Translations under genes and position numbers: made by a program | Source: Burkholderiales bacterium | GTDB lineage: Bacteria; Pseudomonadota; Gammaproteobacteria; Burkholderiales; SG8-39 | Length of the DNA: 62,678 nt | Direction: 5' to 3' | Assembly (NCBI GenBank): GCA_036274335.1 | Contig: DASUFW010000307.1 | Span: 1-62,678 of the forward strand | In this document: positions 22,849 to 29,739 of the stretch, in pieces | Numbering within the stretch: position 1 is the stretch's first letter | Layout: each line of letters starts with the position of its first letter | Notes under the pieces: generated by a model | Told to the model about the DNA's origin: nothing | The model's database searches: none | Seen by the model: only the letters and a program-made list of their open reading frames with translations

Positions 22849-24573
22849 ATGCAAGCCGATCTCCCGGAGACCGCGCCCCCGGCGCGCCTGCCGCAGGCCG
22901 TCTGGGCCTTCAGCCAGCGCTACTGGCGGTTCGTGGTCGTCGCCATGCTCGTGCTGCTGCACGTGGTGTCGCTGCGCGGCGAGGCCGACGATGGCGCGCG
23001 CGTGCTGATGATCGCGCACCTCGGCCTGGTGCTGCTGTGGCAGCCGCTGCTGAAGGCCGAGCGCCGCATGTCGCTCGCGCAGACCGCGCTGATCGCGGCC
23101 TTCGCGGCGTCCCTCGTCCTCTGGCTGAACGGCTGGTTGCTCGCCCTGTGGACCGTGATCCTGGCCGGCCTGGTCGGCGGCAAGGTGTTCCTGCATCAGG
23201 CGCGGTGGCAGCGCCGCTTCTACCTGCTGATGCTCGTGTACCTGCTGGCGCTGCTGGTGGTGATCGTGCTTCCGCAGATCGCGCCCCGCAACGAGATCGA
23301 TCCGGCCATCCACGGCTATGCCGCCTGGGGGCTGCCGGTGATCTTCGTCGTCATGGCGCTGATCCCGACCGAGGCCGATCCGGCCGAATCCGCGCAGGTC
23401 ATCGATTATTTCTACAGCGTGTTCCTGATGCTCATGCTGGGCGTGGTCATCCTGGGCTGCTTCGCGTTCATGATGCTCGGCCGTACGGGCTACCTGGAGG
23501 CGCTCACCTACATCGTCTTCATCATCGCCGGCCTGCTGCTGGTCGTCGGCCTGGCGTGGAATCCGCGCACGGGCTACGCGGGGCTGAACGTCTTCGTGTC
23601 CCGGTACCTCTTCTCCATCGGCCTGCCGATCGAGCAATGGCTGCAGTACCTGGCGCGGCAGTCGCACGCGGAGCCCTCGCCCGACCGCTTCATCGCCGAG
23701 GGCGTCGCGGCGCTCGCGCGGCTGCCGTCGGTACAGGGCGCGGCCTGGCGATCCGGCGGCCGGCACGGCGAGGCCGGGCAGCGCACGCCCTATGCGGTGG
23801 AGTTCGAGAGCGCCGATCTCGCGCTCACCATCTATTCGCGCTATCGCACCAGTCCTGCGCTGCACGGCCACCTGCGCCTCCTCGGCCAGCTGCTGAGCGA
23901 GTTCTATCTCGCCAAGCTCCGCGAGCGGGCGCTGCGCCAGGCGAGCTACCTGGAGGCGGTGCATGAGACCGGCGCTCGCGTGACGCACGACGTCAAGAAC
24001 CTCCTGCAGTCGCTCAATGCCCTGTGCTCGGTCGCGCTGGCCGAGCGCGGGGACTCCCCGGAAGCCATTGCGCTGGTGCGCCGGCAGCTCCCCGCCATCT
24101 CGCAGCGGCTGGCCGCCACGCTGGACAAGCTGCAGCGGCCCGGCGAGGTGGCCGACGCCCGCGCGGCGGCGGCCGCGTGGTGGGACGCCCTGCGCCGCCA
24201 GTACGAGGATCGCGGCGTGCAGTTCGAGGCGCACGGGCTCGAGGACCTGTACCTGCCGCGCGGGCTGTTCGACAGCGTCGCCGACAACCTGCTGCAGAAC
24301 GCGCTCGCCAAGCGCGTCGAGCAGCCCGACCTGCACGTCACGGCGAGATTGGAGGGCGGGCGCAATGCCGAATTGCGGGTGCGCGACACAGGACGCGCGG
24401 TGCCCGCGGAGGTCGCGTCGTCCTTGTTCCGCGGACCGGTCCAGTCGGCGAACGGGCTGGGCATCGGGCTCTATCAAGCCGCCCGGCAGGCACAGGCCGG
24501 CGGTTATCGATTGCGACTCGCTTCCAACCGGGACGGCGACGTGTGCTTTGCGCTTGCGGTGGAGGCGGGTTAG
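22849..24573 (+). CDS. Sensor histidine kinase with a large polytopic N-terminal domain (PilS/PrsK-like architecture)
   Basis: ATG at 22849. About 8-9 hydrophobic helices in the first 330 aa. H-box VTHDVKNLLQSL, N-box DNLLQNA, G-boxes VRDTGR and GLGIGL. Confidence 0.85.
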   Translation: MQADLPETAPPARLPQAVWAFSQRYWRFVVVAMLVLLHVVSLRGEADDGARVLMIAHLGLVLLWQPLLKAERRMSLAQTALIAAFAASLVLWLNGWLLALWTVILAGLVGGKVFLHQARWQRRFYLLMLVYLLALLVVIVLPQIAPRNEIDPAIHGYAAWGLPVIFVVMALIPTEADPAESAQVIDYFYSVFLMLMLGVVILGCFAFMMLGRTGYLEALTYIVFIIAGLLLVVGLAWNPRTGYAGLNVFVSRYLFSIGLPIEQWLQYLARQSHAEPSPDRFIAEGVAALARLPSVQGAAWRSGGRHGEAGQRTPYAVEFESADLALTIYSRYRTSPALHGHLRLLGQLLSEFYLAKLRERALRQASYLEAVHETGARVTHDVKNLLQSLNALCSVALAERGDSPEAIALVRRQLPAISQRLAATLDKLQRPGEVADARAAAAAWWDALRRQYEDRGVQFEAHGLEDLYLPRGLFDSVADNLLQNALAKRVEQPDLHVTARLEGGRNAELRVRDTGRAVPAEVASSLFRGPVQSANGLGIGLYQAARQAQAGGYRLRLASNRDGDVCFALAVEAG

Positions 24574-25352
24574 GGCAAGAGGCCGGCGGCGACCAACCTG
24601 CCGTAGAGCTCGCCCGCGGTGATCCACGTCATCTGGTGGTCGAACTCGCCGTTGGTCGGTCCGGCGGGGTTTGGCGTGTGCCAAACGAATACCCCATCCC
24701 CATTCAGGTTCGCGGCTTCGTCGGCTCCGCCGGTACCCTGGTTGCCTGTCTTCCCGGTGGCGAAGATGACCGCGACTACAGTCGTCTGATTGGTAAGAGG
24801 GGGCTGCGGCGGCGAAGCGCCACAGGTCGTGCTGGTAATGCCGGTCGCCGTCCGGCAAACGACGAGATCGTTCGGCTGGCAGGTCAGGCCGTTGAGCCGC
24901 AAGTTGGTGGCCGAGGTGAAATGCGGCAACGAAGAGGTGCCGGCGCATCCGGTGAGGGCACCGGCAGACACGGCATAGCGTATGCGATTGCCCCAGGCGT
25001 CGACAGCGTAGCCCCCCGCGTCCGTGATCTGAAAGCCGATCGCGCGCGCGGGGAGGAACCCCCCCGTGCCGCTGGGATAGGCTCCCGTGCACGTACCGCC
25101 GCCGGCGGGTGCTTCATCGCCCGCGCTCGTGCTAGTCGCCGGACAGGGCAGGCGGCCATTCGCGACCGCGAAGGCGAGCAGGAGGCTGCGCGCCGCCTCG
25201 ATCCGCTGCCGGGTCTCCTCGAAGTTTCGCTGGTCCGTCTGCGCCGAGAGCGTGTACAGCCCGGCCGCCAGCAGCAGGCTGACGATCGCGAACACGACCG
25301 CGAGTTCCGTGAGCGTGAATCCGCGTTCGTGCCGCTGATCGCGCATGTGCAT
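24570..25352 (-). CDS. Minor pilin-like protein (prepilin-type N-terminal methylation domain)
   Basis: Leader ...RHERG followed by FTLTELAVVFAIVSLLL with Glu5. Six Cys and a GRLPCP motif. Start at 25352 (TGATG junction with the upstream stop) or at 25346. Confidence 0.8.
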   Translation of the reverse strand: MHMRDQRHERGFTLTELAVVFAIVSLLLAAGLYTLSAQTDQRNFEETRQRIEAARSLLLAFAVANGRLPCPATSTSAGDEAPAGGGTCTGAYPSGTGGFLPARAIGFQITDAGGYAVDAWGNRIRYAVSAGALTGCAGTSSLPHFTSATNLRLNGLTCQPNDLVVCRTATGITSTTCGASPPQPPLTNQTTVVAVIFATGKTGNQGTGGADEAANLNGDGVFVWHTPNPAGPTNGEFDHQMTWITAGELYGRLVAAGLLP

Positions 25353-27178
25353 CAGGGCAGATAGTAGGTGCGCACCGGCGAGGTCGACGTGTCGGCGACG
25401 ACCTGCGGGTGGTTGTTCACCGTAGTCAGCAGCAGCGACGTCCCGGTCCAGTCCACCAGGATCACGCGATCGTTCCACGGTCCCTTGGGGTGGGTAACGT
25501 TCGTGAGGCGCCGCATTCGCTGCTGCTCATAGAAGGTTCCGCCGTTCTCGTTGTCGCCTTCGAGGTAGTCCGACAGATTGCCGTTCGGCCTGCTCGCATT
25601 GCTGAGGCTCGCGCCGCCCAGCACCATCAGCGCGCGGATGTTGCAGTAGTTCGCACCGCTGCCGCAGCCGAGGCCTTCATTGAATCGCAGGCAGTTGGTG
25701 CTGCCGCAGCCAAAGGAGGAAAGGCTGTAGGCAGTGTTCTTCTGGGCCGCCGCGTAGTACAGCACGCGCTGCCACTGGTTGCGCGTGAACCACCCGTAGG
25801 TCGGGTCGGTCGACTTCACCAGGGGGTGGTCGGTGATGATCGCGCGCTCGAGGCGCAGCCTGAACTCGCCCTGCGTGTCCCAGCTCATCGCGTCGATGTT
25901 CGGCATCGTCGCCGAGACGCGCACGGTGACCGAGCCGTCGGAATTCATGGTCGCGCTGGGCGCATTGGTCGCGATCGGCGACCAGGGCGGGGTGCCCGAG
26001 TCATCGCGCGCGTAGGCCTGGAAGCGCGCGCCGTCGAGCGCGCGCAGGCCCATGGCCATGTTCGTGAACGTGGCGGTCATTCGCAAGACGATCGGCCGCC
26101 AGGGCTCGGCCGTGTACTCGTGGTAGACGCCCTCGCAAATGCGCACGTCATTCGTCGACTCCCAGGAGCAAGTCTGCGAAACGATGTAGCCGTAGCCCTG
26201 AGTCTCCACGGCGTTCCCAGGCGTCGACTGGTAAGCCACCATCGAAGAAGCCTGGTTCACGGGCAGCAAGCCCTGGCACGGATAGCTGGGGTCCGGAGGG
26301 GACTGGCACAGGGCCGCACTGCCCTGGTAGCTGGACGTGCCTGGATTCGAGAACGGCGCCGGATAGGGGTAGAGCGGGCTGCTCGAGGGAATGCCGGAGT
26401 AGTTCGAGTTGGTATAGACCGTGCGCAATGCCGGCGCGATCTCACGCTGGATTCGATCGGCGACGGCCGCTTCGATCGACGGCATGAGGTCGGCGGCCCT
26501 GACCCGCACCGCCTGGTCGTTGAACGTCTGACCCGGGCGACTGGTGACGAAGCTCGCCGACACGGCGTTCTCGCATTCGAGGTAGTTGCGCACGTCGAGC
26601 GGCCCCGCAACCGGCCGAACCTGCGCCCACGCCGCGGCGCCGCCGCAGGCCGCGGTCGTCATGCGCTCCCCTGGCGCAATGATGAGCGCCACCGAATCGT
26701 TGGCGGCTCCGTCGATCGTCAGCTGCCCTTGGGAGTCGGAGTTGATGACGGTGGGCGTCGTCGAGTTCGGCAGCGCCCAGCCCGGCGATACCACGTACCA
26801 GAGCGGCTCGCCCGCCGTGTCGGTCAGCTTGTCCAGCCCCAGCGTGCGCCAAGGCAGCCGGCCGACCGCAGGCAGGGTGCAGTTGGCGGCGGCGATGCCT
26901 TCGTTCGCGGTGTTGTAGTAGCCGAATGGTTCGGGGCAGGGCAGGCGGCCGGGGTTCGCCTCGCCGGCCTGCGCGGCCAGCTGTGCCACATAGCCGACGA
27001 GCGCCAGCTTCGCGCGCGCCAACATCACTGCATTCTGATTCCGGTCCACCGCGACGAACCGGCTCGCCGCGTTCAGCCGGCTGGTGACCACGTAGGCGAA
27101 CACCAGCACGATCACCGCGACCAGCGCGAGCAGCCCAAACCCGCGCTGCGAGCGAACGCTACCGCTTCGCCGGATCAC
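25352..27178 (-). CDS. Large Cys-rich pseudopilin-like protein lacking Glu5 (candidate tip/adhesin subunit)
   Basis: 608 aa with a GTG start. N-terminus ...SQRG followed by FGLLALVAVIVLVF has Ala at +5. GRLPCP motif, 12 Cys, and a repeated YLE..N...ND(Q/R)-V module. Confidence 0.75.
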   Translation of the reverse strand: MIRRSGSVRSQRGFGLLALVAVIVLVFAYVVTSRLNAASRFVAVDRNQNAVMLARAKLALVGYVAQLAAQAGEANPGRLPCPEPFGYYNTANEGIAAANCTLPAVGRLPWRTLGLDKLTDTAGEPLWYVVSPGWALPNSTTPTVINSDSQGQLTIDGAANDSVALIIAPGERMTTAACGGAAAWAQVRPVAGPLDVRNYLECENAVSASFVTSRPGQTFNDQAVRVRAADLMPSIEAAVADRIQREIAPALRTVYTNSNYSGIPSSSPLYPYPAPFSNPGTSSYQGSAALCQSPPDPSYPCQGLLPVNQASSMVAYQSTPGNAVETQGYGYIVSQTCSWESTNDVRICEGVYHEYTAEPWRPIVLRMTATFTNMAMGLRALDGARFQAYARDDSGTPPWSPIATNAPSATMNSDGSVTVRVSATMPNIDAMSWDTQGEFRLRLERAIITDHPLVKSTDPTYGWFTRNQWQRVLYYAAAQKNTAYSLSSFGCGSTNCLRFNEGLGCGSGANYCNIRALMVLGGASLSNASRPNGNLSDYLEGDNENGGTFYEQQRMRRLTNVTHPKGPWNDRVILVDWTGTSLLLTTVNNHPQVVADTSTSPVRTYYLP

Positions 27179-27596
27179 CGCGCTCGACCTTCAGCTCCCC
27201 CGGGCCGATCGGGTCCTTGATCTCACCGGTCGCGCGGTCGACTTGCTGCCCCACGCGCACGTTGGCAAAGCTTCCCTGCTCCCCGATGCCGATGCGCACC
27301 CGGCTGGGATCGCCGCTCCGGCGCACGCGAACGCCCTCCGGGCGCACGCCGTCCGGGATCGGATTGCCGTCCAGCCAGACCGTCGACTTGCCCTGCGAGC
27401 GCGTCACCACGCCGTCGAGTCGCGTAGTCGGCGAGATTGCCAGCGGTGCGGTGCGATCCTGGATGCCCGCCTTGCGCCGCGCGTCCAGCGCCTCGCGCTG
27501 CTCTGGGGTGAAGAACAGACGGCCGAACTGCTGAGCCCCGGCGAGCGTCGGGCTGAAGAGCCCCAGGGCGAGCAGCGCAAGCGCAAGCCGCCTCAC
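27159..27596 (-). CDS. Small secreted protein (positional analog of MshK/PilP)
   Basis: GTG at 27596 overlaps the upstream stop (GTGA). 145 aa with signal peptide RRLALALLALGLFSPTLAGA. No family recognised. Confidence 0.6.
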   Translation of the reverse strand: MRRLALALLALGLFSPTLAGAQQFGRLFFTPEQREALDARRKAGIQDRTAPLAISPTTRLDGVVTRSQGKSTVWLDGNPIPDGVRPEGVRVRRSGDPSRVRIGIGEQGSFANVRVGQQVDRATGEIKDPIGPGELKVERGDPAKR

Positions 27597-28201
27597 GATT
27601 TCGCCCCGTGGTCGACGATGGTGATGAGGTCGATCTCGCACTCCGCCCGCAGGCGCGGCGCCAGGGTCGGCACGTTGGCGGGCTGGCCGGTGCGAGTCAC
27701 CGTGCAGCGGCGCACGGCGTAATACGCCTTGCCGGAGGCGCGCAGCGCCCACAGGAAGGCGAACAGGTCGCCCTCGTGCAGCAGCGCGAGGTCCACGCGC
27801 ATCATGCTGGCGTAGAAGTCCACCGTGCCCGGCTTGCCCGGCACCGAAGCGAGCGCGCGCTGCCGCTCGACGCGGTAGCGCAGGTCGGGAAGCTCGAGGT
27901 CGCCGCGGATGCGCTTCATCGAATCGGCCCACTCCAGGCGCTGCTCCTCGCCCAGGATGCCGAGCTCCCTGAGCTGCTGGTAGACCTTCAGCTTCTCGCG
28001 GACCTCGCGCTCCTCCTCGGCGATGCGCATCAGGCGCTCCTTCACCTGAACACGCTCCAGGCGCGCGGCCGCGAGCACCGCCGCATCGGCGGCGTGCTTG
28101 TCCTTGGACCAGACGACGAACGAGACGCCGGCCACCAGCAGCACGACGAAAGCGAGCAGCGGGAGGACGAGCTGGCGGACTTCCCGGGCGGTCAGGTTCA
28201 C
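27593..28201 (-). CDS. PilO/MshJ-like bitopic pilus assembly protein
   Basis: GTG at 28201 overlaps the upstream stop. 202 aa with one TM (LVLPLLAFVVLLVAGVSFVVW), then a coiled-coil and a globular periplasmic part. Confidence 0.6.
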   Translation of the reverse strand: MNLTAREVRQLVLPLLAFVVLLVAGVSFVVWSKDKHAADAAVLAAARLERVQVKERLMRIAEEEREVREKLKVYQQLRELGILGEEQRLEWADSMKRIRGDLELPDLRYRVERQRALASVPGKPGTVDFYASMMRVDLALLHEGDLFAFLWALRASGKAYYAVRRCTVTRTGQPANVPTLAPRLRAECEIDLITIVDHGAKS

Positions 28202-29739
28202 GGCAGGTTCCGCGCGAGGAAGATGGTGAAGCGCGGCGCCTCGCCGCCGGACGTCGAGCCGATGTCGCCCGACAGCGTTCCTTCGGAAGTGACGTCGAAC
28301 GGCAGCTGCGTGCGCTCCACCTGGTAGACGCCGCTCTGGCCGAGCGCTTCCGCAAAGCGCTGCACTTCCCCCGTGATCGCCCGATAGTCCGAACGCGCCA
28401 TGCCCGGCACCCGCCCGGAGACCTCGAGGCGCTCGACCTGGGATCCCGGCCCCGACTTCGTCGCCGCGCTCGCCGGCGGCGGCTTTGCGCCTGCGCCGCC
28501 GGACGCCCGGTCGACCTGCCACACGAGCGAGTCGATCTCGATCTGCGGGAATTGGTCGAGCACCTGCGACAGGTAGCGCAGCGTGGGCTCGGGCGCGCCG
28601 CTGCGCTGCGCGATCTTCGTGAACTCGAGCACCGTCGCGCGCAGGTTGTCGACCGTGGTGTAGGTAACCGGGAAAGCATCCGCCTTGCGCCGGTATTCGT
28701 CCTGGTCGGCGCGCGAATCCGCGCGCACCTGGGTGGTTTCCGACCGAATGCCGGCGATGTCGAGCCAGATCGCGCCCGCGTAGAGCGCGCAGGCGGCGAA
28801 GGCGAGTGCGCCGGCCGCCACCAGCCCGCGCTGCATCTGCCAGAGGAAGTACCCGCGCCGCTCCTCGCGCCGCGCGAACTGCTCGCGCGGCGGCCGCCGG
28901 GCGGCCAGCTGCAGATACAGTTGCTCCGCGCCCATGTCCTGCGGCGCTTCCCGGATGCCGACGCGCCGCGCCGCTTCGGCCTGGTCGATCGTGACGAAGG
29001 ACAGGCGCGCATCCGAGACCAGCGTCCGCTCGAAGACCGCCTTGCGGCCGGGCGGCGCGATGACGACGACGTGCACGGGCGGGCCTTCGCGCGGCAGCAC
29101 CCGAAGCGTCGAGAGGTATTGCGCGAGCCGCCCGGTCTCCGAACGCACGAAGGCCGCGAACGCCTCCGGCGTCATATCGGCCGCGCGCTCGAGCCGCGCG
29201 AAGCGCAGCCTGCCGTTGTCGATGAAGCACTGGCGCAGGCCGGCGCGATTGGCGTTCACCACGAAGCAGCGGCCGCCCCGCACCCCGAGGCGCGCCGCCA
29301 GCGCCGGCGCGAGCAGCGGCACCGAGAACATGCCGGCGAGCTTCGCTTCCGATTCCGCCAGCGCATCCAGCCAGGGCGCGATGCGCTGGGTATTGGTGAA
29401 GGACGTGAGCAGCAGGCGCTCGTTGCGCCGCTCGCCGCTCACCTGTCCCAGCGACAGCGCGGTCGCAAGCCGGGTGTCGCGGTAGCGCTGGGCGAGGCGC
29501 CGCCGCAGGACCTGCTCGCGGTCCGAGCCGCGCAGGTACGGAATCAGCTCCTCGTGGAAGTCCTCGCCCGCCTGGTCGACCACCACCGAAAACAGCGCGC
29601 CGCGATGCCCCCCCAGATACTCGCGGAACGCGGAGGCCCCGGTGTCGTCGGACGGGAACTTGGCGTCCAGCGTCAGGCGACCCCGGCGCCACGCATAGAC
29701 GCGGTGCTCGTCGGCGGTGAAATAGGCGATGCGCTTCAT
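28198..29739 (-). CDS. PilM-PilN fusion-like pilus assembly protein (MshI-like)
   Basis: 513 aa: a cytoplasmic part of about 290 aa, one TM (GLVAAGALAFAACALYAGAIWL) and a periplasmic part of about 190 aa. Position and topology match MshI. Not verified by motif. Confidence 0.65.
   Translation of the reverse strand: MKRIAYFTADEHRVYAWRRGRLTLDAKFPSDDTGASAFREYLGGHRGALFSVVVDQAGEDFHEELIPYLRGSDREQVLRRRLAQRYRDTRLATALSLGQVSGERRNERLLLTSFTNTQRIAPWLDALAESEAKLAGMFSVPLLAPALAARLGVRGGRCFVVNANRAGLRQCFIDNGRLRFARLERAADMTPEAFAAFVRSETGRLAQYLSTLRVLPREGPPVHVVVIAPPGRKAVFERTLVSDARLSFVTIDQAEAARRVGIREAPQDMGAEQLYLQLAARRPPREQFARREERRGYFLWQMQRGLVAAGALAFAACALYAGAIWLDIAGIRSETTQVRADSRADQDEYRRKADAFPVTYTTVDNLRATVLEFTKIAQRSGAPEPTLRYLSQVLDQFPQIEIDSLVWQVDRASGGAGAKPPPASAATKSGPGSQVERLEVSGRVPGMARSDYRAITGEVQRFAEALGQSGVYQVERTQLPFDVTSEGTLSGDIGSTSGGEAPRFTIFLARNLP

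Follow-up and report, generated by a model that had tools for sequence, protein, structure and literature searches.

The minus-strand gene at positions 25352–27178 of a 62,678-nucleotide stretch of DNA from a Burkholderiales bacterium (NCBI GenBank assembly GCA_036274335.1, contig DASUFW010000307.1; the whole stretch is referred to as the window) starts with GTG and encodes a protein of 608 residues. With a probability of about 0.6, this protein is the apical minor-pilin-like subunit, in the GspK/PilK position, of a type IV pilus resembling the mannose-sensitive haemagglutinin (MSHA) pilus. From its sequences, the family looks like a pilin-like stem and head followed by a variable middle domain and by a second, stem-less copy of the head. 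A location at the filament tip and a role in initiation are suggested by the missing glutamate at mature position 5 (Glu5), by the gene context and by analogy with GspK and CpaL.

An earlier reading of the same DNA from its letters alone (the sequence-only reading) had described this open reading frame (ORF) without naming a strand; the ORF listing and translation place it on the minus strand. Its position and length were recovered on re-reading, as were a GRLPCP motif at residues 77–82, two related YLE..N...ND motifs (NYLECENAVSASFVTSRPGQTFNDQAVRV at residues 198–226 and DYLEGDNENGGTFYEQQRMRRLTNVTHPKGPWNDRVILV at residues 537–575) and all 12 cysteines, at exactly the residues given (81, 100, 178, 202, 291, 301, 337, 348, 491, 496, 505 and 512). 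The G+C content of the window is 69.6%, and long ORFs are present in several frames. One of them, on the opposite strand (603 residues, 25409–27220, plus strand), spans the entire 608-residue gene and is best read as a compositional artefact, given the G+C content of 70% and the lack of independent support. For the minus-strand frame, more than 1,350 relatives reach E ≤ 1e-3, with identities down to approximately 48% among the best 120; it is therefore a real gene. Residues invariant among 64 relatives are E201, C202, N220, D221 and Q222, within the first motif, and E540, N543, N569, D570 and R571, within the second.

Pilin-like stem and head module

The N-terminus reads MIRRSGSVRSQRG followed by FGLLALVAVIVLVFAYVV: a basic leader that ends in glycine (residues 1–13, 27140..27178, minus strand), with approximately 20 hydrophobic residues after it. 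Gly13 is invariant and forms the putative prepilin-peptidase site. The hydrophobic segment opens a long helix, α1 (residues 14–69, 26972..27139, minus strand), which spans residues 8–69 in both AlphaFold2 models. Mature position +5 after Gly13 is Ala18, and the translation thus bears out the leader ending in SQRG and the alanine in place of Glu5 that the sequence-only reading had reported.

This pattern is a property of the family. All 71 relatives compared have Gly13, 64 have Gln11 and 55 have Arg12; A, V, I, M, L or F is found at position +1, alanine at +2 (60 relatives) and leucine at +3 (69 relatives). At position +5, all 71 have A, V, G, L or I and none has glutamate, as expected from the proposal of a pilin-like N-terminus without Glu5. 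In the family of the neighbouring 260-residue protein, all 65 relatives share Gly at –1, Phe at +1 and Glu at +5. The absence of Glu5 is a known exception among type IV pilins and defines the GspK-type subunits. Such subunits are located at the filament apex (restated in PMC11870444 and PMC13533445). The family consensus r-QRG-x-ALL aligns with the leader of Escherichia coli K-12 GspK, NEQRGVALLIVL (NEQRG/VALLIVL). In hhalign comparisons with GspK, the 19 N-terminal residues alone align (E = 0.0037), and GspG and GspJ align to the family less well than GspK. A distant relative of 376 residues gives a sub-threshold match to PilX_N (E = 0.012, 16 bits; cut-off 25.5). The genome to which the window belongs encodes one prepilin peptidase (Peptidase_A24), outside the pilus locus, and the leader sequence suggests that the 608-residue protein may be cleaved by such an enzyme.

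The stem is followed by head module A (residues 70–227, 26498..26971, minus strand), which contains the elements GRLPCP, GRLPWRTLGL, EPLWYVVSPGW and ALIIAPG and motif 1 (YLECEN...FNDQAVRV, 26501–26587, minus strand). Homology links module A to the globular part of the 260-residue minor prepilin encoded directly downstream (24570..25352, minus strand; leader ending in HERG/FTLTE, with Glu5 and GRLPCP). A second helix (residues 228–255, 26414..26497, minus strand), modelled at residues 228–254, aligns with the C-terminal helix of that prepilin (ITAGELYGRLVAA). The prepilin itself is recognized by Pfam N_methyl (26.4 bits, cut-off 21.2) and TIGR02532 (19.7 bits, cut-off 16.3). Its profile, built from 65 relatives, aligns to residues 6–238 of the 608-residue family with an hhalign probability of 97.9% (E = 4.7e-13), over 220 columns covering prepilin residues 4–256, and HMMER supports the homology (E = 1.6e-8). 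From N- to C-terminus the two proteins have in common a helix, GRLPCP, a cysteine, a G-x-LP-x-R-x-(I/L)-G element, a D-x-(W)G-x-x-(I/W)-Y-x-V-S strand, a hydrophobic strand ending in A-x-G, an (E)-x-x-N ... F-(N/D)-D-(Q/H) motif and a final helix.

Profile comparison thus identifies the stem helix and head of the 608-residue protein as a paralogue of the neighbouring Glu5-bearing prepilin. Because the homology runs from end to end, residues 1–255 form a complete pilin-like unit and not a split half. The sequence-only reading had noticed GRLPCP in both proteins, which is correct but understates the relationship, as the whole 260-residue neighbour aligns to residues 6–238. Its expectation of a pilin-like head after the stem is supported by the same homology, which covers the whole prepilin and residues 1–238. 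Its further proposal, of a pilin fold split around an inserted domain, is not borne out as worded: residues 1–238 are a complete prepilin paralogue, and the model of this N-domain has a predicted local distance difference test (pLDDT) score of 93.

AlphaFold2 models were obtained for the full-length protein (pLDDT of 81.4 and predicted template modelling score (pTM) of 0.80) and for the N-domain alone (pLDDT of 93.1 and pTM of 0.84). In the latter, helix 8–69 is followed by strands 104–107, 127–130, 153–155, 158–162, 164–168 and 222–226 and by helix 228–254, an order of secondary-structure elements that, in this model, fits a pilin.

Sequence searches of the PDB with full-length and N-domain profiles returned only chance-level matches (E = 0.2–0.9) over motif 1, to NE1300, a hydroxylamine oxidoreductase-associated protein. 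The likeness (PDB entries 4n4n chain B and 4fas chain D) covers 26501–26620 (residues ~187–238) and the pattern D-YLEC-...-N-x-x-V-x-V-x-x-x-D. NE1300 is a small Nitrosomonas protein and a binding partner of hydroxylamine oxidoreductase.

Eight cysteines are conserved in the family and form four sequence-local pairs (81/~100, 178–181/202, 337/348 and 491/496). The pairs 291/301 and 505/512 are lineage-specific, and their members appear or vanish jointly. The number of cysteines is even in 62 of 64 relatives. Even counts and co-varying pairs fit a disulfide-bonded, oxidized extracytoplasmic protein, in line with the disulfide stabilization proposed earlier; within module A, the sequence pattern makes C81–C100 and C178–C202 the probable disulfides.

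Distal modules and internal duplication

Head module B (residues 456–578, 25445..25813, minus strand) contains GWFTRNQWQRVLYYAAA, GCGSTNC (C491–C496), IRALMVLGG and motif 2 (DYLEGDN...WNDRVILV, 25454–25570, minus strand). A local hhalign comparison of residues 70–255 with residues 456–608 gives E = 1.2e-4 and a score of 33.4, aligning RP-x-(D/N)-YLE-x-x-N ... (F/W)ND(Q/R)-V-x-V; none of 100 column-shuffled controls scored above 21.9, and the score with the profile reversed was 12.7. A longer and weaker alignment (E = 0.0086, obtained with a non-default option; the default run is preferred) reaches back to the W-x-x-x-x-Y-Y-A strand. In an exhaustive search, the N-domain profile matches twice in most proteins of 550–650 residues. 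The corresponding hidden Markov model (HMM) matches the C-terminal module at an independent E-value (i-E) below 0.01 in 21 of 72 relatives, with a match in module B that sometimes covers positions 121–226, the whole β-part of the head, and HMMER gives reciprocal cross-matches between modules A and B in distant relatives from complete genomes. The second match of the window protein itself is weak (i-E = 1.2), so the repeat is clear at the level of the family and eroded in this sequence. Module B is thus, as judged from profile similarity, an extra β-module that duplicates the head without its stem helix. The internal repeat claimed in the sequence-only reading therefore holds, with a score above all 100 shuffles and motif columns that are invariant in 64 relatives.

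Approximately 50 of 71 relatives end six to eight residues past the second ND motif, with the consensus ...FNDR(I/V)(V/I)V(V/I)D(S/A)N(P), and the same terminus recurs in variants of 376–425 residues and in other families of the order. This conserved terminal strand resembles, by analogy, the C-terminal donor strand described for PilK-type subunits and CpaL (Ellison et al. 2026, PMC13533445). The window protein belongs to a subclade with an extra tail of 19–37 residues, present in only about 15 of the 71; here the tail (residues 579–608, ...PQVVADTSTSPVRTYYLP; 25352..25444, minus strand, stop codon included) is subclade-specific and modelled at a pLDDT of 34–41. Mean-field direct-coupling analysis of the C-terminal strand against N-domain contacts (296 sequences, effective number of sequences (Meff) of 221) was dominated by the indel and lineage signal of this tail and was uninformative.

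Two relatives from complete genomes depart from the common layout. A 794-residue protein (L084:9435–11900, genome of 2.7 Mb) carries approximately 300 extra residues ahead of the terminal ND strand. By eye, NYLEGGN, the first half of motif 2, lies approximately 330 residues from the terminal ...RANDQLITINDFFTTWLP, a reading that HMMER backs in part. Since motif 2 is split in this relative and the ND strand is kept at the end, its sequence suggests that the loop of motif 2 tolerates insertions while the ND strand stays terminal. An idea, formed by eye, that the extra domain is of the legume-lectin type (GEGFTFAIIDGD...IGIEIDT) was unsupported by Pfam or by PDB sequence search. In the other genome (L082:10000–11000), the homologue has only about 320–340 residues and consists of the N-domain and an unrelated tail of approximately 100 residues, without module B. 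The L082 locus has no detectable match to the ABC-2 permease or the 238-residue gene described below; a reduced form of the system therefore exists.

Between the two head modules lies a linker and a variable β-rich middle domain (residues 256–455, 25814..26413, minus strand), with the pair C337–C348 and the lineage-specific C291–C301. The segment is indeed rich in Ser, Thr, Pro and Tyr, as had been noted (34.6%, against 27.6% for the whole protein), but it is not a low-complexity linker: AlphaFold2 predicts a folded region of eight or nine strands at a pLDDT of approximately 90. The middle domain is the least conserved part of the protein: mean identity to the window protein is 32–39% there, compared with 58% in module A. 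Its length varies between 136 and 224 residues among relatives, and in the variants of 376–425 residues it is absent or reduced to a short cysteine-containing linker. No significant match to a family (Pfam), a solved structure or a viral model (Foldseek against PDB and BFVD) was detected for this domain. The closest relative (P0004, 76% identical overall) is 89% identical in the middle domain, 79–80% in module B and the tail, and 62–63% in the stem and module A, a mosaic that suggests recombination between the pilin-like and the distal modules. The variability and dispensability of the middle domain would fit an exposed, specificity-determining surface, but this is no evidence for the adhesive role put forward in the sequence-only reading.

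Locus organization and distribution

The 608-residue gene is part of a minus-strand operon that comprises, in order, genes for a sigma-54 response regulator, an MshM/ExeA-like ATPase, an MshL-like secretin, a tetratricopeptide repeat (TPR) protein, an MshE-type ATPase, a GspF/PilC-type platform protein, proteins of 513, 202 and 145 residues (p513, p202 and p145), the 608-residue protein and the 260-residue prepilin. Downstream of the prepilin are a convergent gene for a polytopic histidine kinase and genes for an ABC-2 permease, a 238-residue protein and two major-type pilins of 213 residues. The MshE-type ATPase has a cyclic di-GMP-binding N-domain (NF053729, 59.4 bits, cut-off 38), and the secretin scores slightly below the cut-off for the MshL type (TIGR02519, 240.3 bits, cut-off 250.2). 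The MshE, MshL, MshM-like and TPR genes identify this, at the level of sequence, as an MSHA-type pilus context. The 62-kb window encodes only three prepilins with Glu5, namely the 260-residue protein and the two of 213 residues.

The 608-residue gene is closely tied to that of the 260-residue prepilin. Its GTG start lies 20 nucleotides inside the 145-residue gene, and its TGA stop and the ATG of the prepilin gene overlap by a single base (TGATG), an arrangement that fits coupled translation of the two. In a scan of one genome per species, 409 loci with a relative were found, 80 of which were fetched; nearly all of the 80 are from metagenome-assembled genomes (MAGs) of uncultured soil or groundwater Burkholderiales or 'Betaproteobacteria'. 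The order MshM–MshL–TPR–MshE–MshG–p513–p202–p145–608-residue gene–260-residue pilin is kept in the approximately 45 loci long enough to judge, and also in complete genomes of other families. The 260-residue pilin gene adjoins the 608-residue homologue in 72 of the 80 loci, and in one further locus (L083) these two genes alone were found within the 20 kb fetched. One MAG contains both a full locus (L037) and, surrounded by metabolic genes with no relation to the pilus, an orphan pair of 608- and 260-residue genes (L078), which indicates that the pair behaves as a unit. The 608-residue protein is the least conserved of the locus, with identities of 33–60%, compared with 85–93% for MshE and 70–94% for the platform protein.

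In the genome of the window (3.04 Mb in 444 contigs, 89% complete), the 608- and 260-residue genes are each present in a single copy, and a separate canonical type IVa pilus set is located elsewhere. Across the order, the N-domain profile matches (E ≤ 1e-20) in 136 of 301 sampled genomes and in 64 of 143 genera. All six complete or near-complete genomes that were examined carry the gene, five of them in the same type of locus; the sixth is that of L083. In the Gallionellaceae, among them the cultured Ferrigenium kumadai An22, the only annotations given to relatives are 'hypothetical protein' and the COG label 'pseudopilin PulG'. We found no paper that describes the 608-residue family; rearranged MSH-like clusters of unknown function have been reported in Sideroxydans ES-1 and Gallionella ES-2 (Emerson et al. 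2013, PMC3770913).

Other features of the related loci recur. The genes for the 513-, 202- and 145-residue proteins (27159–29739, minus strand) sit in the place of MshI/J/K-type assembly genes and recur across almost all of the related loci, and no Pfam or NCBIfam match was found for the three proteins. A gene similar to class III adenylate/guanylate cyclases directly follows the 260-residue pilin gene in one locus (L029:12668–14032), and a cyclase-like gene follows the orphan pair (L078:12395–13504). Approximately 2 kb of extra DNA is present at the same site after the pilin gene in eight others (L030, L034, L040, L042, L044, L045, L049 and L053). There may be a recurrent link of the gene pair with nucleotide signalling.

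Proposed role and comparison with known systems

In the proposed mechanism, the hydrophobic N-terminus would insert the 608-residue protein into the inner membrane, and the single prepilin peptidase of the genome would cut after Gly13. Because the protein has no Glu5, it would need no subunit above it and would enter the filament first. Together with the co-translated 260-residue pilin it would form a complex for priming and capping, onto which the two major pilins would polymerize. Having entered first, as part of this complex, it would come to lie at the tip and expose its variable middle domain, a possible surface for binding. The terminal strand of module B (FNDR-V-V-V-V-D-x-N in most relatives) would close the sheet of the module and may dock onto the partner pilin, like the β-strand addition described for PilK-type subunits.

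Several results weigh against an apical pilin-like subunit. Neither PF07963 nor TIGR02532 matched the 608-residue protein (E ≤ 0.1) or 64 relatives (E ≤ 1), and there was likewise no PilX_N or T2SSK match in the protein or in any of the 64 (E ≤ 1). Foldseek searches of the PDB returned no solved pilin, either with the N-domain model (best E = 2.6) or with the full model (best E = 8e-3, an Ig-like heme-transfer protein). The locus has no recognizable GspI/GspJ-type partner and encodes a single other minor pilin, and some relatives, such as the 342-residue protein of the L082 locus, lack module B. More broadly, Pfam and NCBIfam scans of the protein, the 64 relatives and the distant and short relatives gave nothing above noise, a genome-wide search of the window genome found no T2SSK domain, and Foldseek returned nothing at E ≤ 1e-3 for the full model against the PDB and BFVD or for the N-domain against the PDB; the top entries were generic Ig-like or jelly-roll sandwiches and uncharacterized phage proteins. 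The head may be a variant fold without a solved relative, or Foldseek may be weak on a model that consists of a helix and loops.

The absence of any matched pilin HMM or pilin fold could also be explained if the protein were never in the filament, and were instead an uncleaved bitopic assembly factor of the inner membrane and periplasm, anchored by its helix and analogous to GspC/L/M or PilN/O/P. The lack of Glu5, a position +1 that is variable instead of Phe, and a gene that directly follows three unannotated machinery-like genes (p513, p202 and p145) in one operon would all agree with such a function. However, an invariant glycine just before the hydrophobic segment and after a basic leader would have no evident use in a plain anchor, and the protein is homologous to a genuine prepilin from one end of it to the other, including the head. 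Translational coupling to the prepilin and the orphan pair with it also speak for a place beside the pilins, and the gene, which diverges more than any other in the locus and encodes a hypervariable domain, is unlike those of core assembly proteins. We therefore regard an assembly factor as quite unlikely.

A tip or initiator pseudopilin strictly equivalent to GspK would share the apical position and be non-adhesive, its extra domains serving assembly control or secretin gating, perhaps in a short secretion pseudopilus. The GspK-type leader agrees with this, as does the fact that no adhesin, lectin or vWA family and no fold matched the protein in Pfam, NCBIfam or Foldseek. The variants of 376–425 residues without the middle domain indicate a conserved core of two head modules, and GspK, too, carries a large non-adhesive insertion (PMC13533445). 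Against such equivalence, the MshE-type cyclic di-GMP ATPase and the MshL-like secretin are hallmarks of MSHA and not of a type II secretion system, two 213-residue major pilins are present, and the variability and mosaic identity of the middle domain suggest an exposed, diversifying surface. We consider it unlikely, and favour the apical subunit of an MSHA-like pilus. A more speculative extension, which we regard as doubtful, is that the two head modules on one stem and the minor pilin form a minimal tip complex, a pseudo-trimeric, GspI–J–K-like cap made of two polypeptides, with a head fold that has no solved counterpart and a C-terminal strand that would carry out the β-strand addition by which, as recently proposed, all type IV filaments are licensed to assemble.

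Almost half of the genomes sampled from the order have MSH-like loci of this layout, among them those of iron-oxidizing Gallionellaceae and of numerous uncultured Burkholderiales from soil, and the probable tip proteins all carry the annotation 'hypothetical'. As a probable cap or initiator, the 608-residue family offers a concrete handle for genetics in cultured carriers. The system appears to run on just two minor-pilin-like proteins, and provides a natural test of the idea that the terminal β-strand of the apical subunit licenses filament assembly. With a pLDDT of 93 and no structural neighbour, the head domain is a reasonable target for structure determination.

Like GspK, PilX and PilK, the 608-residue protein lacks Glu5, and its basic leader ends in QRG with x-A-L-L directly after it; it is larger than other minor pilins, has extra domains and is the presumed first subunit of the filament. 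It differs from them in having no match to T2SSK (PF03934 and related) or PilX_N (PF14341), in a similarity to GspK that stops after the 19 aligned residues, in the absence of the α-domain insertion of GspK, and in a head whose paralogue is the adjacent Glu5 pilin and for which Foldseek returned no solved GspK or PilX structure. Partners of the GspI/GspJ (PilV/PilW) type, typical of GspK, are missing from its locus. The PilY1/PilC proteins have a C-terminal β-propeller (Neisseria_PilC domain) and no pilin-type N-terminus, whereas the 608-residue protein has a pilin-like stem of its own; no Neisseria_PilC Pfam match and no propeller among the Foldseek entries were found for it.

The MshP and MshQ proteins of Vibrio cholerae (modelled in PMC13533445) provide a parallel in the same type of machine, with MshE/G/L/M/N-like components, a Glu5-less pilin in the PilK position and a large tip-associated protein beside the minor pilins. 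The Vibrio system, compared here by description only, has a separate mshB/A/C/D/O/P/Q set, in place of which the locus in the window has the 608- and 260-residue proteins, and no Pfam or NCBIfam MSHA-pilin model matched the former.

PilK homologues in which large insertions precede a C-terminal donor strand are known from Tad pili (CpaL), Thermus and Vibrio competence pili (PMC13533445, PMC11870444). CpaL/TadG has a comparable length of approximately 600 residues and an N-terminal minor-pilin-like module without the usual register residue; CpaL is predicted to be apical and to work with few minor pilins (PMC11870444, PMC13533445). In both CpaL and the 608-residue protein, a large and partly dispensable region precedes a conserved C-terminal β-strand. 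However, CpaL has a von Willebrand factor A (vWA) domain with a metal-ion-dependent adhesion site (MIDAS) and two β-barrels, and belongs to a Tad locus rather than one of the MSH type. The C-terminal part of the 608-residue protein is instead a duplicate of its own head module, and no similarity in sequence or fold to CpaL was detected; no vWA or Tad Pfam match was found in the protein or its 64 relatives. ComZ of Thermus thermophilus (PMC6561018) is likewise a large pilin-like protein that contains a sizeable inserted domain, pairs with one small pilin, PilA2, and has a proposed site at the tip. The insertion in ComZ is a β-solenoid that acts in DNA uptake (PMC6561018), and Foldseek searches of the PDB, in which the ComZ structure is presumed to be included if deposited, returned no match for the models of the 608-residue protein. 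Apart from its GspK-type leader, the protein matches none of GspK, CpaL/TadG and ComZ, either by sequence or by fold, and is probably analogous, not homologous, to CpaL/TadG or ComZ. Its architecture is closest to those of CpaL/TadG and ComZ, and its leader is closest to that of GspK.

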